Sequence record: NZ_LR134454.1 | Source of the DNA: a plasmid | Reading direction: 5' to 3' (one strand) | DNA: 64,000 bases | Part shown: positions 408 to 12,204 of the stretch, one piece after another | Layout of the letters: every line of letters starts with the position of its first letter | How positions within the stretch are numbered: the stretch's first letter is position 1 | Notes under the pieces: model-generated | The model's input: the letters and a program-made list of their open reading frames with translations, nothing else | The model's database searches: none | Told to the model about the DNA's origin: nothing | Translations under genes and position numbers: made by a program

Positions 408-528
408 GCAGTTCGGCTTCAAGGGCTCGACGCAAGAGATGTGTTGCTAGCTCTTCGGGATGGATGCTGACTGCGGCTCAAAAGATAAAACGATACAACG
501 ACAAACTCAATGGGGAGTGGAAACAATA

Positions 529-1011
529 ATGAGAACGGTGCTTCGATATTCGCTGCGGATCGCGATTGCCGCGTGTGTGGTCGCACCCGTGGCAGGGTGC
601 GGTCTCGAGCATGCTGGAAATGCACCTACGACGTACGTTCGTCCCGGGCACACGCTGCCGGCATCGACCACGTCAGTGAGTTCGCCGACTGCCGTAAGCT
701 CGTCCGTTCCGGAACCGACGACCGTCCCTACGATCGCAGATACCTGCTCCGGGAGCTACTGGTACGGCGACGCGGTCAACACGCACGTATGGATCGGACG
801 GCGCGTCGCGCAGGACGCCAGGATTGTCGTGACGACCACCGACGGGAAGGTCAGTTCATGGACGAACACCGTCACGTCCGACGACGGGTACGCCCGTAAG
901 GGCTGGTACAGCGAGTCCACGACGCCGTTGCTCGGCACTCCGGTGGCGACGGTCAAACGTGTCGACCTCCAGATCGACGGTCGAACCTGCCCGATCCGAA
1001 AGACGGGATAG
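529..1011 (+). CDS. putative lipoprotein (signal peptide + lipobox VAGCG), unknown function
   Basis: Internal ATG at 529 (M24 of ORF 460..1011) preceded by GGAG. The N-terminus MRTVLRYSLRIAIAACVVAPVAGCG is a typical lipoprotein signal. The mature part is Ser/Thr-rich. Confidence 0.5.
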   Translation: MRTVLRYSLRIAIAACVVAPVAGCGLEHAGNAPTTYVRPGHTLPASTTSVSSPTAVSSSVPEPTTVPTIADTCSGSYWYGDAVNTHVWIGRRVAQDARIVVTTTDGKVSSWTNTVTSDDGYARKGWYSESTTPLLGTPVATVKRVDLQIDGRTCPIRKTG

Positions 1012-1060
1012 TCAGACCGGCCGGTGAGTCGCCGACCTATCGCGAAGCGGCAGCGGTGGA

Positions 1061-1756
1061 CTAGGAGCTGACGCCGAGGCGGTTGAGGAGGTCGGCGTCG
1101 ATGCCGTCGAGCTCGCGGGCGATGGCCTGGTGCGCCGGGCGGCGGCGCGCGGGCGGCATCGACTCGGACGCGGTGATGGCGGTGCCCAGGTCGTCGAGGC
1201 GCTGCGCCACGGCGGCGGTGAAGGACTTGGTCTCCGCATCGGGGTGCGTGGCCGCCAGCTGGTCCAGCGAGCGACGGGCCGCCGCGACGCGGGCCGAGAG
1301 GCCGCCGCCGTAGCCGGCGAACGCCGCGACCTCGTCGACGGGCACGCCGAGGCGCGAGGCCTTGGCCGCATCGAGCTGGTTCCGGCCGGCCTGCGCCGCC
1401 CGGTAGGCGATCGGCACCACGACAGGCGCCAGCAGGCGCGCGGTCGAGATGTAGCGCTTGAGCCGCGCCTCGGAGAGGAGCTTGCCGTCGACGGCCGCGC
1501 GGGCCTGGGTCTCGGCGATCTTCAGGTTCGCCGCATCGGCCTTGCCCTGCGCCTTCGCCACGATCTTCGAGCGCTGCAGGTCGGCCTTCAGCGCCTTGCG
1601 CTCGCTCTTCGACGCGTTCTTCACGACGCGCTTGGCGTCACGGTCCGCGTTCTTGGCGGCGAGCTTCGCCTCGAGGCGCCCCTTGGACTTGAGCGCCTTG
1701 GCCTGCGCGCGGCGCTCCGCGCGGGAGGACTTCGTCTTCTTGCCGAACAAACCCAT
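1061..1756 (-). CDS. conserved hypothetical protein with Lys/Ala-rich N-terminus (231 aa)
   Basis: Internal Met (MGLFGKKTKSS...) of the artefactual 1058-aa ORF. N-terminal KA-rich repeats give a histone-like low-complexity region. GC3 is high. Confidence 0.55.
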   Translation of the reverse strand: MGLFGKKTKSSRAERRAQAKALKSKGRLEAKLAAKNADRDAKRVVKNASKSERKALKADLQRSKIVAKAQGKADAANLKIAETQARAAVDGKLLSEARLKRYISTARLLAPVVVPIAYRAAQAGRNQLDAAKASRLGVPVDEVAAFAGYGGGLSARVAAARRSLDQLAATHPDAETKSFTAAVAQRLDDLGTAITASESMPPARRRPAHQAIARELDGIDADLLNRLGVSS

Positions 1757-1852
1757 CAGTGCACGTCCTTGTAGGTCAGTACTGCCGTCCGGTACAGCAT
1801 TGCACAGCGCGGCTCCGCGGGTTGTCGGTGCCGCCCGCCATACTGCTAAGCA

Positions 1853-3400
1853 GTGGACATCGACCAGGGCATCAAGACGACTCCGGTGAGCGCGCGCTCG
1901 CTCACCGGTTGTCGGCACCGTCTGGCGCTCGAGGCCCGCGCCCCGCAGGGCGAGCCCGACCCGGGCATGGCGCTCCGGGTCGAGGCGGCCGCCGTCTTCC
2001 GCGCGTCCGTCCGCGACCGGCTGCCAGGGCTCACCGTCATCGAGCCCGGGGAGGGCGCGGTGCGCCGCACCCTCGCCGCGATGGAGGCCGGTGCCGATCG
2101 GATCTGGAACGCCGTGCTGCCCACCGCGCACGATCGCCGCGGCCACAGCGAGCTCCTCGTCCGCCTCGCCGACGGCTACATCCCCGTCATCGTCGTCAAC
2201 CACAAGACCTGCGACCCCGGCGCCGGCGCCGTGACGTCGCCGCTGGACCGCTGGGAGCCCCGCGAGGACGCGACGGTCCGCTCCCGCCAGCACCGCGGCG
2301 ACCAGATGCGCCTCGCGCACCTCACCCGGATGCTGCAGGACGCGGGCTTCGCGTCCCGGACGCTGCTCGGCGGGAGCATCGGGGTCGACGGTGCGCGCAT
2401 CGTCGTCCAGGAGGTCGGGCCGCTCCTGGCCGCCTACGACGAGCGGTTCGCGGACCGTCGGGCCGTCCTGGCCGGCACCGTGGAGACCGAGCCCGTGCGG
2501 GTGGCCGAGTGCCGACGGTGCCCCTGGTGGCCGCAGTGCGCGCAGACCCTGACGCTCGCGCGGGACGTGAGCCTGGTGGCCGACGGGCGTTCGGCGCCCG
2601 GGCTGCGCGAGGCGGGCATCGGCACCGTCGACCAGCTGGCCGAGTACGTGGGGCCCCAGCCCGAGGACGTGCCCGTGCCCATCGCCGACCTGCGGGCCAT
2701 GGCCCGCGCGTGGCGGGACGGGCAGGTGCTCGTGCGGCGGCAGCCCGAGGTGAAGGTGCGCCGGGCCGACGTCGAGGTCGACGTCGATATGGAGAGCTAC
2801 CAGGAGTACGGCGCCTACCTGTGGGGCACGTGGCTGCGGCGCGACGGCGTCGACCTCGGCTACCGGCCCTTCGTCACCTGGGACCCCGTGCCCACGCGCG
2901 ACGAGGCCCGCTCGTTCGCCGAGTTCTGGGCCTTCCTCATGGACCGTCGCGCGGAGGCGCACGCCGCGGGCAAGACCTTCGCCGCGTACTGCTACTCGCA
3001 GAACGCCGAGAACAAGTGGCTGCTGGCCTCCGCGGACCGGTTCGCGGGCGAGCCGGGCGTGCCCGTGCGGCGGGCCGTGGAGGAATTCATCGCCTCGCCC
3101 GAGTGGGTCGACATGTTCGACGCCGTCGGCGACGCCTTCCTCTCCCTCGAGGGCCGAGGCCTGAAGAAGGTGGCGCCCGTCGCCGGATTCCATTGGCGCG
3201 ACGCGGAGGCCGGCGGCGAGGCGTCGATGCTCTGGTACCGCGTGGGCGTCGGGATCGACGCCGGCTTCGCCGACGAGGACCGGGCCGTCCAGCGGCAGCG
3301 GATCCTCGACTACAACGAGGACGACGTGAAGGCCACCGCGGCGCTCCGCGCGTTCATGTCGAGCGAGAAGGTGCTCGCGCTGCCGGTGGTGGGCGGCTAG
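1853..3400 (+). CDS. TM0106-family RecB-like (PD-(D/E)XK) putative nuclease with C-terminal RNase-H-like domain
   Basis: 515-aa ORF. Carries a CRRCPWWPQC cysteine cluster as in AddB/Cas4-type Fe-S nucleases. The C-terminal region (SQNAENKWL ... YNEDDVKA) looks like a DnaQ/RNase-H-like fold. Confidence 0.6.
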   Translation: MDIDQGIKTTPVSARSLTGCRHRLALEARAPQGEPDPGMALRVEAAAVFRASVRDRLPGLTVIEPGEGAVRRTLAAMEAGADRIWNAVLPTAHDRRGHSELLVRLADGYIPVIVVNHKTCDPGAGAVTSPLDRWEPREDATVRSRQHRGDQMRLAHLTRMLQDAGFASRTLLGGSIGVDGARIVVQEVGPLLAAYDERFADRRAVLAGTVETEPVRVAECRRCPWWPQCAQTLTLARDVSLVADGRSAPGLREAGIGTVDQLAEYVGPQPEDVPVPIADLRAMARAWRDGQVLVRRQPEVKVRRADVEVDVDMESYQEYGAYLWGTWLRRDGVDLGYRPFVTWDPVPTRDEARSFAEFWAFLMDRRAEAHAAGKTFAAYCYSQNAENKWLLASADRFAGEPGVPVRRAVEEFIASPEWVDMFDAVGDAFLSLEGRGLKKVAPVAGFHWRDAEAGGEASMLWYRVGVGIDAGFADEDRAVQRQRILDYNEDDVKATAALRAFMSSEKVLALPVVGG

Positions 3401-4338
3401 GGCCTGCCGGCCATGAACTTCTGCATGTCGGCGAGGACGCGCTCCGCGGCGACGGTGGAGGCGTTGAGGAACCAGGGGTCGACGTCGACCTCGAAGGCGC
3501 GTCCGCGCTCGACGACCGGCAACTTCTTCCACAGCGCCGCCTCCGTCATGTCGCGCGAGGCCTTCGGGAACGAGTAGAACAGCCAGTCGGCGTCGAGCAT
3601 CCCCACCTCCTCCGGCGACAGCGCGCGGCTCGCGACGTCGGAGAAGCGCTGGGCCGCAGGGCGGGTCAGGCCGGCATCCGTGCCGACGATGCTCGCCAGG
3701 GCCAGCGTCCCGAAGTACAGGTACTGATCGCCGCGCGCCCGGACCAGCGAGACGGTCGCGGCGTCGCCGCGCGACTGCGCCCACGCGCGGGCGCGGCCCG
3801 CGTAGTCGGCGAGCAGCTTCTCGCCGGACTGCTTTCGCTTCAGCGCCTCGGCGACGGTCGTCAGGTCGGTCTTGAACGCCTCCGAGCCGCCCGCGGTGAG
3901 CACGGTGGGGGCCATCTTCGCCAGCTGCTCGTTGAGGGACTTGTCGGCCCGCTTGTTCGACAGGATCAGGTCGGGCTTGAGTGCGGCGATCTTCTCCGGG
4001 TCCGGCGTCATCCGCTCGCCGACGATCTGGATCGCGTCGAGGTCGTACTTCGCGCCGAAGGCGTCGCGGATGAACTGGGGGATCCCGGTGCTGTTGCTCG
4101 CCTCCGGGGCGACCACCGCGAGGCCGACCGGCACCGTTCCCAGCGCGAGGCAGTGATCCAGGTGTCCGGTGGAGAGCGCGACCACCCGCTTCGGGCCGTC
4201 GTCGCCCGTCTGCGCGGACGTGCCGTCGGCGCCGCACGCGGACAGCGCGGCCGCGGCGCCCAGGCCGCCCGCGCCGAGGAGCAGCGATCGTCGGCTGAGG
4301 GGGCGGCGCATCGGGGAGCGAGGACTCGGGGAGGTCAT
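3397..4338 (-). CDS. ABC transporter substrate-binding lipoprotein, iron-siderophore (FecB/FepB-like) type, Tat signal
   Basis: N-terminus MRRPLSRRSLLLGAGGLGAAAALSACG has a twin-arginine motif and a lipobox. Periplasmic binding protein class III signature throughout. The 3' end overlaps the convergent upstream gene by 4 nt. Confidence 0.75.
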   Translation of the reverse strand: MTSPSPRSPMRRPLSRRSLLLGAGGLGAAAALSACGADGTSAQTGDDGPKRVVALSTGHLDHCLALGTVPVGLAVVAPEASNSTGIPQFIRDAFGAKYDLDAIQIVGERMTPDPEKIAALKPDLILSNKRADKSLNEQLAKMAPTVLTAGGSEAFKTDLTTVAEALKRKQSGEKLLADYAGRARAWAQSRGDAATVSLVRARGDQYLYFGTLALASIVGTDAGLTRPAAQRFSDVASRALSPEEVGMLDADWLFYSFPKASRDMTEAALWKKLPVVERGRAFEVDVDPWFLNASTVAAERVLADMQKFMAGRP

Positions 4339-4419
4339 CGCTTTAGGTTAGGCTAAGGATAGTTGGCGCGACGCGCGACCCCGCCAACCAGCAAGGCGCT
4401 CGGGATCTGCTCGGGAGGG

Positions 4420-5535
4420 CTAGGCCTGGGCCTGGCGCAGGTGCGCGCGACGCAGGGCGTCGGCGAAGCTGCCGCTGCCCAGGAGCGCGACGCCACCGAG
4501 GATGGCGATCATCGCGGGGGAGAGCTGCCGCGCCGTCTCCGCCGCGACCGGCGCCACGCGCTGCGCCGACGTGTACGCCGCCGCGAAGACGGTGCTGTTG
4601 CCGTTGCTGCCGGAGCTCTGCTCCGCCGGCGTGCGGTCGGTGTTCGACGGTGCCGGGGCCGCGGGGGCCGGAGCCGCCGGCTTCGGGGCGGCGGGCTTCG
4701 GTGCCGGTGCAGGCGCGGGAGCCGGAAGGACCGGGCCGGCCACGACGACCGGCGGGACGATGACCGGCGCGACGACGGCCGGGGCCACGGGTGCCGCTGC
4801 GCCGACGCCTGCGGCCGGAGCCGAGGGGCGGGCGTCGCTGCTGCTGCTCGTGGAGCCGCTGTCCTTGGTCGAACCCGGCGACTCGGGGAGCGGGTTGCCC
4901 GTGCGCACGCCGCTGCCGCTGGAGATGGGGGCGCCGCCCGAGCCGGTCGAATTGGTGGAACCGGTCGACGAGCTCGACGACGAGCCGGAATCGGAGCCGC
5001 CCGCGCTGGGGATCGTGGGCGAGGTCGCGGTGCCCGTCGAGCCGCCGCTGCTCGAGCCGCCCCCGCCGAAGATGCCGCCGATGATGCCGATCAGGCCGCC
5101 GCCGTGGCCGTGGCCCTTGTCCTTGCCGTTGTCGCCCTCTTCCTTATCGGGCTTGTTGCTGCCCGTCTCGGTCTCGTCACCCGTCGTCGTGCCGCCGCCG
5201 TTCGGCGAGCCGGTGTCGGTGGAGGAGTCGCCCGAGCCACTGCCGCGAGAGGAGCTGCTGCCGGCTCCGACGCCGCTGCCACCGCCGCTCCGGGAGTCGT
5301 TGCCCGTCGCGCGGCCGGCGCTGCCCGTGGTGGACGCATCGTCGTTCGAACCTCTCGACGATGCGGACGAGGAGCCGTCCGTGCTCTGCGAGGTCGAGCT
5401 GCCGGATCCGGAGCCACTGTCGGAATCCGACGAATCGGGGGTCGCCCAGGCGGGCGCGGAGGCGATGGCGCCGAGGGCGAGAGCGGTGATGCCGATGGCC
5501 CGGAGACGTCGGGAGAGATGGGTCGGACGCGACAC
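4420..5535 (-). CDS. secreted low-complexity Ser/Gly/Thr- and Pro/Ala-rich protein with C-terminal hydrophobic anchor (Erp-like architecture)
   Basis: Clean Sec signal (…ASAPAWA|TP). Long DSGSGSGS/STGS tracts, then PAPAPAPAPKPAAPKPAAP, then a C-terminal hydrophobic segment ILGGVALLGSGSF followed by RRAHLRQAQA. The opposite-strand Pro-rich ORFs are mirror frames. Confidence 0.5.
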   Translation of the reverse strand: MSRPTHLSRRLRAIGITALALGAIASAPAWATPDSSDSDSGSGSGSSTSQSTDGSSSASSRGSNDDASTTGSAGRATGNDSRSGGGSGVGAGSSSSRGSGSGDSSTDTGSPNGGGTTTGDETETGSNKPDKEEGDNGKDKGHGHGGGLIGIIGGIFGGGGSSSGGSTGTATSPTIPSAGGSDSGSSSSSSTGSTNSTGSGGAPISSGSGVRTGNPLPESPGSTKDSGSTSSSSDARPSAPAAGVGAAAPVAPAVVAPVIVPPVVVAGPVLPAPAPAPAPKPAAPKPAAPAPAAPAPSNTDRTPAEQSSGSNGNSTVFAAAYTSAQRVAPVAAETARQLSPAMIAILGGVALLGSGSFADALRRAHLRQAQA

Positions 5536-5716
5536 AACACACCCCTTCCGCTATTCGTGCACAGGCGTAGGTAAGAATACAGTATCCGCGCTCATGGGTG
5601 ATAGCCGATCACGAAGCGGTCGTGTTCCATGGCGAAGTGCGCTATAGTGTGATCGAGGCTTGTGGACTCGCAATAAGATGTGTTCAGCGAGTCCGGAGTG
5701 CCGGTGATAGAGAGGG

Positions 5717-6208
5717 ATGGCACAAGTGGATACAGGTAATAAGTACGACAGCGACGCTCTGGTGGGCCAGGGCCTGTTCGCGAGTCGTCTCGAGGAGCTG
5801 TTCCGCACGGTGCCCGGCCCGAACGGTCGCGCATTCACCGCGAAGGCGATCGCCCAGCGTTCGACCGCCCTGGGCTTCCGCCTGGGCGAGTCCTACCTGA
5901 GCCAGCTCCGTTCCGGCAAGGCGAAGTCGCCGTCCTTCCGCACCGTCGAGGGCATCTCGGCCGCGTTCGGCGTCGACGTGCACTACTTCCTCGAGGACGA
6001 GGCCGCCCAGCGCACGCGCGACCAGATCCACCTCATGCGCCTCCAGGCCGACACCAAGGTGCAGATGGCCGCGTTCCGCCTGGCAGGGCTCTCGCCCGAC
6101 TCGGTGAACATGGTCAACGAGCTCATCAAGGTGTTGCGAGTGCAGCAGGGCTTGCCCGCCGACCCGCCCGAGCTTCCCGTAGACTCGCGCGAAAACGAGG
6201 GGCTCTAG
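5717..6208 (+). CDS. XRE-family HTH nucleoid-associated regulator, EspR-like
   Basis: The HTH region YLSQLRSGKAKSPSFRTVEGISAAFGVDVHYF and the N-terminal RLEELFRTVPGP match the M. tuberculosis EspR pattern as recalled. The gene lies in the sodA neighbourhood, as in M. tuberculosis. Confidence 0.7.
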   Translation: MAQVDTGNKYDSDALVGQGLFASRLEELFRTVPGPNGRAFTAKAIAQRSTALGFRLGESYLSQLRSGKAKSPSFRTVEGISAAFGVDVHYFLEDEAAQRTRDQIHLMRLQADTKVQMAAFRLAGLSPDSVNMVNELIKVLRVQQGLPADPPELPVDSRENEGL

Positions 6209-6297
6209 CCTCAGCGGCTGACGCGTCGCGGCCCTCCGGGCCGCCGTGAGTGTGCCTCCGGCACCGTCGTCCCTCTACGACCGTGTGGAGGTGGGCT

Positions 6298-6810
6298 GTG
6301 CGTTCCGTCAAAGCGCTGCGCCGCCTGTGTGAGAACGAGGTGCGCAGCCTCGACCTGGACCTGCCCTTCGACGCGGTCCAGCTGTGCGAGAAGTACGGCA
6401 AGCGCCGCGGCCGCGACATCCTGGTGATCTCGCAGCCGCTGCCCGTCGGCATGCCGAACGGCCTGTGGCTCGTCGGCGACGACGCGGACTACTTCTTCTA
6501 CCAGGCCAATACGTCGCGCACGCACCGCGACCAGATCATCATCCATGAGTTCGGCCACCTCATCGCAGGCCACCAGAACGCCGGTCCAACAGCGGCCGCA
6601 CCGCAGACCGCGGAGATGTCCTCCCCGGAGGCCGACGCCGCGCTGCACCGCACCTGTTACGACGACGAGCACGAGTGGGAGGCCGAGATGATCGCCTCCA
6701 TCATTCTCGGCTGGGCGTCCGAAGCCGGCGCGCTCGCCGGTCGCACCGCCAAGCACGACAGTCTGCGCGGCATCCAGCGCGCCCTGGGAGGTCATTCCCG
6801 GTGGCTGTGA
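6298..6810 (+). CDS. ImmA/IrrE-family (COG2856-like) HExxH zinc metallopeptidase-domain protein
   Basis: GTG start at 6298 preceded by GGAGGTGGG. Motif IIIHEFGHLIAGH gives HExxH. It sits immediately downstream of an XRE HTH gene, the classic ImmR/ImmA and DdrO/IrrE pairing. Confidence 0.55.
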   Translation: MRSVKALRRLCENEVRSLDLDLPFDAVQLCEKYGKRRGRDILVISQPLPVGMPNGLWLVGDDADYFFYQANTSRTHRDQIIIHEFGHLIAGHQNAGPTAAAPQTAEMSSPEADAALHRTCYDDEHEWEAEMIASIILGWASEAGALAGRTAKHDSLRGIQRALGGHSRWL

Positions 6811-7913
6811 AGCTCGTGAACGTACTCGGCGTCGCGTTCTTCACCCTGGTGTTGTGCTGGCGCATCGACCGGCTCTACCGCGCGAAGGCCGGGATCCAGG
6901 CCGTCGCGGTCACTGTCGCCATCGCCGCGCTGACGCTCGCCGTGCTCCTGCTCGGCTCGCCGATCGCGCCCACCATCGACGGTGCGTTGTGGCGGGGCGC
7001 CTCCCGCCTCGGCGGCTACGCCTCGCTCGCCCTGGGCGTCGCCGCGTTGGCCGTCGCCTTCTTCTACGGCCCCACCGAATCGGCCCGCCAACGTCGCGCG
7101 GGGATGGAGGCCATCCCGCTCATCGCCGCGGTCGTCGGCCTGTCCGTCGCCATGAACGTGACGCCGCCGTCGCTGCGCGACGCGAGCCTCGACACCCTCA
7201 CCGTGCAGGAACTGGGCTTCGCCGTCTTCTTCGTCATCGCCGGCGGCTATCTGATGTACGGGCTCGCGGACTGCGTCCTCTCGCTGACCCGGCTCATGCC
7301 CTTCGCCGACGGCTACCTCACGACGTCGCTGCGGCTCATGTCCGCGGGCCTCGCGATCACCGCCGTCGGCTCCCTCGCGCAGGTCGCGTTCGTGCTCACC
7401 AGCGCGGGCCACGTGGCCTCCTGGCCGGTCCTGCTGAGCCTGTCGCAGGCCTGCACCGCGGGCGGCATCCTGCTGTTCGTCGTGGGCCTGAGCTACCCGG
7501 GCGTGCGCGGCTTCGTCGTGCAGATGCAGTACCGCAAGAAGCACCGCCGGGACTACAAGCGGCTCGAGCCGCTCTGGACGCTGCTCACCACCGCGGTCCC
7601 CGAGGTCGTGCTCGATGCGGGTAAGGCGCGCCGCGACCCGCACCTGCGCTTCCAGCGCCGGGTCGTCGAGATCCGCGACGTGCTGGTCCAGCTCAGCCCG
7701 TACCTGCCCGACGACTTCGGCGACGGCGTGCCCGAGGAGAACGTGCACAACCTGCTCGTGGCGATCGACCTGCGCAACGAGGCCGGGGCGGCGCCGGCAC
7801 CGTCGAGCATGGTGCTTCCGCCCGACGGCCCCTCCATCGACGACGACGCCGCCCCGCTCCTCGTCCTGTCGGACGCGGTCGGGGCGACGCCGGCGGAGGA
7901 ACTGCAGATCTAG
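6807..7913 (+). CDS. polytopic membrane protein with cytoplasmic C-terminal domain (possibly MAB_1171c/DUF6545-type)
   Basis: GTG start overlaps the upstream stop (GTGA at 6807–6810), indicating translational coupling. Eight or more predicted TM helices, followed by a basic and conserved-looking C-terminal segment YRKKHRRDYKRLEPLW…. Confidence 0.6.
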   Translation: MKLVNVLGVAFFTLVLCWRIDRLYRAKAGIQAVAVTVAIAALTLAVLLLGSPIAPTIDGALWRGASRLGGYASLALGVAALAVAFFYGPTESARQRRAGMEAIPLIAAVVGLSVAMNVTPPSLRDASLDTLTVQELGFAVFFVIAGGYLMYGLADCVLSLTRLMPFADGYLTTSLRLMSAGLAITAVGSLAQVAFVLTSAGHVASWPVLLSLSQACTAGGILLFVVGLSYPGVRGFVVQMQYRKKHRRDYKRLEPLWTLLTTAVPEVVLDAGKARRDPHLRFQRRVVEIRDVLVQLSPYLPDDFGDGVPEENVHNLLVAIDLRNEAGAAPAPSSMVLPPDGPSIDDDAAPLLVLSDAVGATPAEELQI

Positions 7914-7992
7914 CGCGGAGCCATCCGAATGGCTGCGATCCCGCGGCCATTCGGGTGGCCGAGCAGGTCTAGCGCGGAGCCATCCGAATGGC
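7909..7992. repeat. 25-bp perfect direct repeat (tctagcgcggagccatccgaatggc) duplicating the 3' end of the SDR gene, copies at 7909–7933 and 7968–7992
   Basis: Seen directly in the sequence. Copy 1 contains the stop of the + membrane gene. Copy 2 contains the stop of the − SDR gene. Confidence 0.8.
7925..7954. terminator. intergenic hairpin (9-bp stem ccgaatggc/gccattcgg, 12-nt loop) between convergent genes
   Basis: Inverted repeat at 7925–7933 and 7946–7954. There is no U-tract, which is typical for high-GC actinobacteria. Confidence 0.3.
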
Positions 7993-8727
7993 CCCGTCCA
8001 TGCGGATCGTCTCGCCGTTCATGTAGTCGTGCTGCGAGAGGAAGTACGCGAGATCGGCGTACTCGGACGGCTCGCCCAGACGCTGCGGGAACGGGACGCC
8101 CGCCTCGAGGGTCTGCTTGAACTCCGGGGTCACGCCCGCGAGCATCGGGGTGTTGATGATGCCCGGCGCGATGGTGTTCACGCGGATGCCGAACTGCGCC
8201 AGGTCGCGCGCGGCGGTGATGGTCATGGCGTGCACGCCGCCCTTGGAGGCGGTGTAGGCGATCTGGCCGATCTGGCCCTCGAAGGCCGCGACCGAGGCGG
8301 TGTTGACGATGAGGCCGCGGGAGCCCTGCTCGTCGACGGCCTCCTGCTTGCTCATCTGGTCGGCGGCCAGGCGCATCACGTTGAACGTGCCCACGAGGTT
8401 GATGTTGATGACCGTCTGGAACAGGTCCAGCGCGTGCGGGCCGTTCTTCGACAGGATGCGGCCGGCCCAGCCGACGCCGGCGCAGTTGACGGCCACGCGC
8501 AGCGGGCCGGCCTTGACGGCCTCGGCGATCGCGGCGAGGACCTCGTCCTCCTTGGTCACGTCGGTCGCGACGAGGTGCACGTTCTCGACCGGGGTCGCCT
8601 TGTCGATCGACGGCTGCAGGTCGAGGCCGAAGACGGTGGCGCCCGCATCGGCGAAACGCTTCGCGGTGGCGGCGCCGAGGCCGGATGCGCCACCGGTGAC
8701 GATGACGGAGGAGCCGGAGACGTCCAT
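7969..8727 (-). CDS. SDR-family oxidoreductase (3-hydroxyacyl-CoA dehydrogenase type-2-like)
   Basis: TGGASGLG Rossmann motif. YxxxK catalytic motif (YTASK). Confidence 0.85.
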   Translation of the reverse strand: MDVSGSSVIVTGGASGLGAATAKRFADAGATVFGLDLQPSIDKATPVENVHLVATDVTKEDEVLAAIAEAVKAGPLRVAVNCAGVGWAGRILSKNGPHALDLFQTVININLVGTFNVMRLAADQMSKQEAVDEQGSRGLIVNTASVAAFEGQIGQIAYTASKGGVHAMTITAARDLAQFGIRVNTIAPGIINTPMLAGVTPEFKQTLEAGVPFPQRLGEPSEYADLAYFLSQHDYMNGETIRMDGAIRMAPR

Positions 8728-10551: not shown

Positions 10552-11154
10552 TCAGGCGGTGGCGGCGGCGTAGCGCGCGGCGACGTCGTCCCAGTTCACG
10601 ACGTTCCACCAGGCCTTGACGTAGTCGGCCTTGACGTTCTTGTACTGCAGGTAGAAGGCGTGCTCCCACATGTCGAGCATGAGCAGCGGGGTCAGGCCGA
10701 TGGAGATGTTGCCCTGCTGGTCGGTGAGCTGCTGCAGCACGAGGCGCTTGCCGATGTGGTCGTAGGCCAGCACGGACCAGCCGGAGCCCTGCAGCGTCAT
10801 GGCGACGGCGGTGAAGTGGGCCTGGAACTTGTCGAAGCCGCCGAACTGCTCGTCGATGGCCGCGGCCAGGTCGCCGACCGGCTTGTCGCCACCGTTGGGC
10901 GACAGGTTCTTCCAGAAGATGGAGTGGTTGGTGTGGCCACCGAGGTGGAAGGCGAGGTTCTTGGAGAGCAGGGGCGCCTTGGTCGCGATCGAGCCGTCCT
11001 CGCGGGCCTCCGCGAGCTGCTCGAGGGCCTGGTTGGCGCCGGCGACGTAGGCGGCGTGGTGCTTGCTGTGGTGCAGCTCCATGATCTCGCCCGAGATGTG
11101 GGGCGCGAGCGCGCTGTAGTCGTAGTCGAGGTCCGGCAGAGTGTAGACGGCCAC
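10552..11154 (-). CDS. sodA: superoxide dismutase [Mn/Fe]
   Basis: Full-length SOD. Metal ligands and the [11 protein letters not shown] signature are present. Confidence 0.95.
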
Positions 11155-11796: not shown

Positions 11797-12204
11797 ATGG
11801 TGGACATGACCGGAACCAGCTTCGGGGCGCGCACCCAGCGCCTCAGCGGTGATCGGGCCGGCCGCGTTCGCACCCTCGTCGGCGGCCGCCAGACCCGCGC
11901 CGACATCGTCGTGTCGATGACACTGCTCGTCGTGTCGTTCACCGCGACGATCATCAATCTCGTCCTCGCGGTGCGTGCGATGCCCTCGATCCGCGAGTGC
12001 GCAGCGATGGCGTGCACGTACACGGGCACGTTCGACGTGCTGGCCATCACCTTCCTCACGTCGCTGCTGCTCGGCACGACCTTCGGCGCGCACGCCGTAC
12101 TCAACCTGCTCAACCGGCGCAACGCCTGGGGCTATGCGCTGCTCGACGCCCTCGTCTCGTTCGGCTGCGTGTTCGGCGGCCTCGCCTTCGCGTCCACGCT
12201 CTGA
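11797..12204 (+). CDS. hypothetical membrane protein (3–4 TM helices)
   Basis: ORF 11770..12204. Internal Met at 11797 chosen. Hydrophobic segments are present. Confidence 0.5.
   Translation: MVDMTGTSFGARTQRLSGDRAGRVRTLVGGRQTRADIVVSMTLLVVSFTATIINLVLAVRAMPSIRECAAMACTYTGTFDVLAITFLTSLLLGTTFGAHAVLNLLNRRNAWGYALLDALVSFGCVFGGLAFASTL

Follow-up and report, generated by a model that had tools for sequence, protein, structure and literature searches.

A widespread actinobacterial gene triad of an EspR-family regulator, an ImmA-like peptidase and a DUF6545 membrane protein: a possible membrane-gated repressor-protease switch

The 64,000 nucleotides (nt) of Tsukamurella DNA analyzed here, from sequence record NZ_LR134454.1 and hereafter called the window (all positions are window positions unless a locus is named), carry three co-directional genes encoding an EspR-family XRE-type helix-turn-helix (HTH) protein, a stand-alone M78 (ImmA/IrrE-type) zinc-peptidase domain and a polytopic MAB_1171c/DUF6545 membrane protein (Table 1). 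The open reading frames lie where a preliminary description, made from the sequence alone, had placed them, and the three domain assignments it predicted (HTH/EspR, M78-type peptidase and DUF6545/MAB_1171c) were all borne out. The system is widespread and can be read as a variant of the known XRE-M78 repressor-protease pairs; gating of the protease by the membrane protein is the leading model, which our evidence partly supports.

The triad and its products

The second gene, whose 170-amino-acid (aa) product is encoded identically in three NCBI assemblies (the nearest loci are those of T. hominis and Tsukamurella sp. M9C), carries the HExxH motif noted earlier (IIIHEFGHLIAGH, residues 80–92). 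H83, E84 and H87 of this motif, together with E130, are invariant in 60 relatives that are 24–61% identical to the window peptidase. E126 is present in 58 of the 60 and A129 in at least 90%, giving an E-x-EA helix as in M78 enzymes, and E130 is the likely third zinc ligand. The product models as an M78 metallopeptidase domain, for which a fold search returned CapP as the best structural match, and 28 of the 60 relatives match Pfam M78 at E < 0.01 (best E, 2.7e-7). From model and alignment, the peptidase is predicted to be catalytically competent and specific. An exhaustive profile search found 2,379 family clusters at 50% identity, nearly all of about 160–230 aa. The peptidase also occurs on 102 actinobacterial plasmid records.

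The C-terminal GAF domain of CapP and IrrE senses single-stranded DNA (ssDNA) and forms an ssDNA-binding groove (10.64898/2026.05.16.725639). The structure model of the window peptidase contains only the peptidase domain and a disordered C-terminal tail ending in a conserved GGHxxWL motif, with no GAF or other sensor domain to form such a groove, which makes an external regulator plausible. A CapP-like cysteine switch was considered and rejected: C120 (in RTCY) is kept in 18 of 20 Corynebacteriales but in just 7 of 60 relatives family-wide.

The first product is EspR-like, as had been proposed, and is so over its full length, with residues 20–147 matching residues 5–132 of M. tuberculosis EspR (PDB 3qf3, E 2.5e-11). 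Like EspR (Rv3849), it consists of an N-terminal HTH and a C-terminal dimerization-type domain, and the family alignment reveals a conserved V-x3-A-x-R-x2-G-L motif common to both. Extensions at both termini, including a conserved QGLP tail, set it apart from EspR, which has no such tail. Further matches are to Pfam HTH_3 (E 0.0019), to the PADLOC profile for capH, a regulator of the antiphage signaling systems based on cyclic oligonucleotides (CBASS), through residues 45–140 (E 2.9e-6), and, more weakly than to EspR, to an actinophage immunity repressor (8bny, E 1.3e-5).

The third product belongs to the MAB_1171c/DUF6545 family, scoring 305.7 bits in NCBIfam NF042915 (cut-off, 100) and 77.6 bits in Pfam PF20182 (cut-off, 24.4). 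Both an AlphaFold2 (AF2) model and hydropathy give seven transmembrane (TM) helices, not the eight or more counted in the preliminary description, with the N terminus outside and the C terminus inside, plus a cytosolic helical DUF6545 domain bearing conserved LxPLW and RxxxExRD motifs. Among 35 representatives with less than 60% identity, the residues kept in at least 80% all fall in this cytosolic domain (L253, P255, L256, W257, P265, R284, E288, R290, D291, A319 and L351), the only exceptions being two TM glycines. Such a pattern fits a conserved cytosolic docking or signaling surface on a divergent membrane module, and would fit a transporter or an enzyme poorly. The protein has no PADLOC or PHROGs match. 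A transposon mutant in M. abscessus MAB_1171c is reported to have lower minimum inhibitory concentrations of clarithromycin and cefoxitin and to form less biofilm (PMC8707978), a phenotype that fits a role in an envelope-stress or xenobiotic response.

Table 1. Coordinates of the triad and associated features in the window, and of the espR-adjacent pair in locus L176
Feature	Position	Strand	Remarks
EspR-family XRE-type HTH gene	5717–6208	+	163 aa (160 aa if GTG 5726 is the start)
HTH-peptidase spacer	6209–6297	+	89 nt
Stand-alone M78 (ImmA/IrrE-type) zinc-peptidase domain gene	6298–6810	+	170 aa
MAB_1171c/DUF6545 membrane gene	6801 or 6807 to 7913	+	370 aa (GTG 6801) or 368 aa (GTG 6807)
Divergent intergenic region between S/G-rich secreted-protein gene (−) and HTH gene	5536–5716		TATAGT at 5643–5648
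Hairpin with 18-bp stem just after membrane-gene stop	7920–7959		inverted repeat and fold energy
L176 espR	4001–4399	+	locus coordinates
L176 membrane gene	4451–5611	−	locus coordinates
L176 peptidase gene	5608–6123	−	locus coordinates

The preliminary description regarded the whole triad as translationally coupled. Only the peptidase and membrane genes overlap, however; the HTH stop and the peptidase start are separated by a gap of 89 nt. A GTG (6807–6809) does overlap the peptidase TGA (6808–6810), but the start of the membrane gene is more likely GTG 6801, giving an overlap of 10 rather than 4 nt, because GGGAGG (6786–6791) lies 9 nt upstream of it and public gene calls for the membrane protein have 370 aa. 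The HTH gene may likewise start at GTG 5726 instead of ATG 5717, as in one public gene call of 160 aa. The peptidase gene has a Shine-Dalgarno sequence, GGAGG (6284–6288), 9 nt upstream, and a predicted fold of the spacer (region 6250–6292, z-score −2.8) pairs it with CCUCC at 6254–6258. Pairing of this kind could reduce translation of the peptidase and membrane protein relative to the HTH protein. Orthologous loci have spacers of anywhere between 15 and 106 nt, and the length is not kept across genera, so we regard the fold as a local feature.

Conservation of the triad and its link to the espR locus

A genome scan centered on the membrane gene yielded 80 loci from Tsukamurella, Gordonia, Williamsia, Streptomyces, Kitasatospora, Actinomadura, Actinokineospora and one metagenome-assembled genome (MAG) labeled Chloroflexota. 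Counting peptidase genes on the same strand within 4 kb, 76 of the 80 have the peptidase, and 74 have an EspR-family HTH gene; among the four loci without a peptidase, one is truncated at a contig end. Conversely, 15 of 16 peptidase-centered loci, which include chromosomes, plasmids and an M. abscessus "phage Adler" record, have a MAB_1171c-family gene directly downstream. Co-conservation thus extends far beyond the Corynebacteriales, and the cassette is seen on chromosomes, plasmids and one prophage-like element. In Tsukamurella, Gordonia and Williamsia it occupies a chromosomal locus with stable flanks (SDR gene in 38 of 44 loci, GDT1 in 41 of 44). Three labels are probably due to assembly contamination or mislabeling rather than true occurrence: the triads and flanks of L088 (labeled Mycobacteroides abscessus), L028 (Kitasatospora arboriphila) and L020 (an Acidobacteriaceae MAG) look like those of Gordonia, Williamsia and Tsukamurella, respectively.

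Linkage of the three genes persists despite a change in their order. In the HTH-peptidase-membrane order, the second and third genes overlap by 10 nt in the 17 Tsukamurella-type genome loci, whereas Gordonia and Williamsia have junctions that mostly range from −10 to +23 nt. The membrane gene comes first in many Streptomyces and Kitasatospora loci and is followed, after a gap of about 300 nt, by HTH and peptidase genes that overlap by 4 nt; a second membrane gene 3′ of the peptidase was looked for in these loci and not found. Each order therefore contains one overlapping junction.

Loci outside the Tsukamurella-Gordonia-Williamsia clade often have a fourth gene that overlaps the membrane-gene stop or lies close behind it. 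The fourth gene can encode a PAP2 phosphatase, a cytochrome P450, an amidohydrolase, an NAD(P)/FAD oxidoreductase, an aldo-keto reductase, a NUDIX protein plus a globin, or an MpaB oxygenase. Since the identity of this gene varies, the triad forms a constant unit to which a variable enzyme is joined; judged from these gene contents, the membrane protein is part of that unit and not of the output. Two loci show further variations. Pseudarthrobacter chlorophenolicus plasmid pACHL01 (L103, locus positions 1403–4406) has two tandem peptidase/MAB_1171c-like pairs (160 + 323 and 160 + 318 aa) followed by an MpaB oxygenase gene. In Actinobacteria bacterium YIM 96077 (L090, locus positions 424–3126), the triad and a PAP2 gene lie beside Prim-Pol, ArdC-N and DUF2637 genes, which suggests that an integrative or conjugative element carries them.

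How is the triad related to EspR itself? The window HTH protein, at about 30% identity, is not an orthologue of Rv3849: in a metagenome scan with EspR that recovered 80 loci, true orthologues were 80–88% identical. M. tuberculosis EspR is closer to the triad HTH proteins of Streptomyces and related genera (38–42% identity) than to that of the window, and on these identity values it would fall inside the triad HTH family. Most loci from the scan have the M. tuberculosis gene order, GDT1, espR and a gene for a 218-aa DUF6474 protein, the first being of the Rv3848 type and the last, as we take it, of the Rv3850 type. Among the 47 loci whose downstream sequence is long enough, 13 (L160, L161, L167, L171, L173–L178, L181, L182 and L184) have a peptidase-membrane pair tail-to-tail with espR, between it and the DUF6474 gene (Table 1 lists L176). 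The peptidase of this pair retains HELGH and EQEAE, its gene overlaps the membrane gene by 4 nt, and the membrane protein matches MAB_1171c_fam (E 5e-8) and scores 58 bits against the family profile, for which shuffled controls reach at most 5 bits. All 13, none of which contains another family HTH, come from one narrow environmental lineage, in which the peptidases are 93–100% identical and the EspR orthologues share 82% identity with M. tuberculosis EspR.

In the Tsukamurella window, the block reads DUF6474, triad, GDT1 and sodA. Although its local arrangement differs from that of the espR locus, the shared DUF6474/GDT1/sodA block puts the triad at a position orthologous to the mycobacterial espR locus. 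The link to EspR-type regulation that the preliminary description had suggested thereby gains unexpected support from synteny. It may be that EspR-family regulators were ancestrally the cleavable repressor arm of a switch built from a receptor-like 7TM protein and an ImmA-like protease, that at least one living lineage keeps the pair beside a true espR and has no other family HTH there, and that the M. tuberculosis type lost the pair and kept an orphan EspR. We consider this history unlikely as it stands. If true, it would mean that a bacterial 7TM receptor signals via regulated proteolysis of a transcription factor and that EspR has a previously unsuspected mode of control.

Flanking sequences

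The gene transcribed divergently from the HTH gene (4420–5535, minus strand) may be a target of the regulation; its Ser/Gly/Pro-rich product has both a signal peptide and, at the C terminus, a TM anchor. The mycobacterial-type locus L176 has a gene for a protein of similar compositional bias (S/T/P-rich) directly 5′ of the peptidase gene and on the same strand (locus positions 6160–7302, minus strand), and no sequence similarity is detectable between the two proteins. Upstream of the HTH gene, the −10-like TATAGT lies within GCGCTATAGTGTGA, which is conserved in almost all Tsukamurella loci. The longer TGGCAAA...GCGCTATAGTGTGA element common to these loci is a candidate promoter/operator element, as is CTTTAATGTTTGCAAGTTCAAG, conserved upstream of the HTH gene in Gordonia loci (L029–L048); candidate positions in the window are 5597–5604 and 5703–5710. 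Scanning for the sigma-70 consensus yielded no complete promoter. The inverted repeat GGACTCGC-N15-GCGAGTCC (5664–5694) was rejected as an operator, its right arm not being conserved in sister species.

The hairpin after the membrane gene (an 89% complementary inverted repeat; fold of −55.4 kcal/mol, z-score −5.0) sits between the convergent membrane and SDR genes and is probably a bidirectional terminator that closes the transcription unit. The intrinsic-terminator scan made no call, missing this hairpin because it has no U-tract, and positions 5400–8100 contain no Rfam match. The 3′ end of the convergent SDR gene, stop codon included, is present twice as a 43-nt direct repeat (7904–7946 and 7963–8005, 84% identity), and the membrane-gene stop (TAG) consequently falls inside the first copy. 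The two copies flank and form the 18-bp hairpin.

As had been noted, sodA lies nearby (10552–11154, minus strand). The 132-aa gene past sodA (11806–12204, plus strand), which has the length of EspR and was considered as its true orthologue, encodes a small hydrophobic membrane protein and was rejected; there is no second EspR homologue in the window.

A membrane-gated model, its alternatives and known systems

XRE-M78 repressor-protease pairs serve as switches for mobile elements, DNA-damage responses and phage defense. To our knowledge, the input is cytoplasmic in every case characterized. As the leading model, we propose that the three genes form one conserved regulatory cassette in which a membrane-gated protease cleaves the EspR-family repressor, and we give this a probability of roughly 45%. 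The EspR-family protein would be a dimeric DNA-binding repressor, probably of its own operon and perhaps, in Tsukamurella, also of the divergent gene for the S/G-rich envelope protein. The 170-aa protein would be an active ImmA-like zinc endopeptidase with this repressor as its substrate. Input would come from the 7TM protein, whose cytosolic DUF6545 domain would hold or gate the peptidase at the membrane until cleavage is released or activated by a lipophilic small molecule or by a signal from the membrane or envelope. Derepression of the operon would follow, and with it that of the variable enzyme gene which other genomes have fused to it. Repressor function, repressor cleavage, contact between peptidase and membrane protein and the nature of the signal are steps that we infer rather than observe. 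Gating at the membrane is favored because the triad is the constant unit, the peptidase has no sensor domain, conservation of the membrane protein is on its cytosolic face and a junction is coupled in both gene orders. The repressor fits as the substrate because it combines an XRE HTH with a C-terminal dimerization domain, like ImmR, DdrO and CapH.

Several observations weigh against this model. ImmA, also of about 170 aa, functions without a membrane partner, so the missing sensor domain is no proof of gating by the membrane protein. Three membrane-centered loci with complete flanks (L078, L081 and L082) have no peptidase, the Tsukamurella clade has no cargo enzyme gene after the triad, and comparison of sister loci revealed no conserved operator upstream of the HTH gene. 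The window peptidase does not reach the Pfam M78 (PF06114) gathering threshold (18.9 versus 22 bits, E 0.0014), and neither single-sequence nor family-profile searches found M78 structures in PDB; given the Pfam score, its assignment rests on the fold and the invariant residues. The AF2 model of the membrane protein is of moderate quality (predicted template modeling score 0.54), and its matches to G-protein-coupled receptor-like folds are weak and perhaps reflect just a generic helical bundle.

It is possible, though on balance somewhat unlikely, that the HTH protein and peptidase are a self-contained switch of the ImmR/ImmA or CapH/CapP type responding to a cytoplasmic signal (DNA damage or a small molecule), with the membrane protein and enzyme as regulated output, for example a permease or an envelope protein working with the enzyme. 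Regulation of diverse neighboring operons is known for XRE-M78 pairs, the NCBI family name of the membrane protein is "putative transporter", and in the Streptomyces/Kitasatospora order it is the HTH and peptidase genes that overlap, the membrane gene being about 300 nt upstream. However, generic regulator pairs go with many cargoes, whereas this peptidase subfamily keeps almost exclusively to a single family of membrane proteins (15 of 16 and 76 of 80 loci), and the element that varies is a further gene. Moreover, the membrane protein yielded no transporter fold and no conserved TM polar residues, and the peptidase lacks a domain that could bind a ligand or ssDNA.

It is improbable that the cassette is a toxin-antitoxin, addiction or abortive-infection module of three components, in which the membrane protein would be a membrane-damaging toxin and the peptidase would remove the HTH antitoxin or repressor on a trigger. 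Xre-COG2856 pairs were predicted in 2009 to be toxin-antitoxin-like, three-component systems (PMC2701414). Some family members are labeled "toxin" by NCBI, and the cassette occurs on many plasmids (the 102 peptidase records), in a prophage-like element and beside Prim-Pol/ArdC genes. Yet it sits at a stable chromosomal locus in Tsukamurella, Gordonia and Williamsia, its membrane protein is absent from the PADLOC and PHROGs matches, the linked enzymes are small-molecule- or lipid-modifying types rather than typical defense effectors, and the M. abscessus mutant, whose phenotypes concern drug susceptibility, is viable. Equally doubtful is a peptidase that processes the membrane protein or another substrate instead of the HTH protein, or that acts as a non-proteolytic co-regulator like the M78-like domains of PrpR/RamB, since the strictly invariant HExxH and downstream Glu argue for catalysis and the HTH protein, a constant partner, is built in the standard way of ImmR, DdrO and CapH.

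Full-text searches turned up nothing that describes the triad, or DUF6545/MAB_1171c proteins in such a context. The triad represents a large unstudied family of actinobacterial cassettes, each combining an M78 subfamily with a dedicated 7TM protein and an EspR-family partner. Their frequent fusion to genes for P450, PAP2, amidohydrolase and similar enzymes, on chromosomes as well as plasmids and in genera such as Streptomyces, Rhodococcus and Mycobacterium, suggests that they act as portable induction devices sensing the membrane or xenobiotics. The phenotype of the M. abscessus MAB_1171c mutant points to a possible relevance to intrinsic drug tolerance, and the M. tuberculosis virulence regulator EspR is put in an evolutionary and mechanistic context that is directly testable.

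Among known systems, ImmR/ImmA of ICEBs1, DdrO/IrrE of Deinococcus and CapH/CapP of CBASS likewise have an XRE HTH protein with a C-terminal dimerization domain adjoining an HExxH M78-fold peptidase. The window peptidase is about the size of ImmA and has CapP as its top structural match; the capH and capP profile matches are weak. CapH/CapP is the closest characterized system. The cassette differs from all three in having no GAF domain or ssDNA sensing, an EspR-family HTH protein, a near-obligatory 7TM DUF6545 partner and, often, a fused enzyme gene. EspR in M. tuberculosis-type loci is solitary, whereas the window HTH protein has both an adjacent peptidase and a membrane partner. PrpR/RamB-type mycobacterial regulators are single fused XRE-M78-like proteins whose M78-like domain binds a ligand; the components of the cassette are separate proteins, and its catalytic residues are invariant. 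Type II toxin-antitoxin systems (Xre-COG2856) are two-gene addiction modules with a growth-inhibiting toxin; the unit here has three genes. Finally, BlaR1/BlaI and MecR1/MecI share the logic proposed for the cassette, in which a membrane sensor acts through a zinc protease to inactivate a repressor and so induce resistance or modifying enzymes. BlaR1 and MecR1 (M56) are single polypeptides that unite TM helices, a zinc protease and an extracellular penicillin-binding sensor, an organization that the cassette does not have; by analogy, its logic would be that of a split BlaR1/BlaI system.

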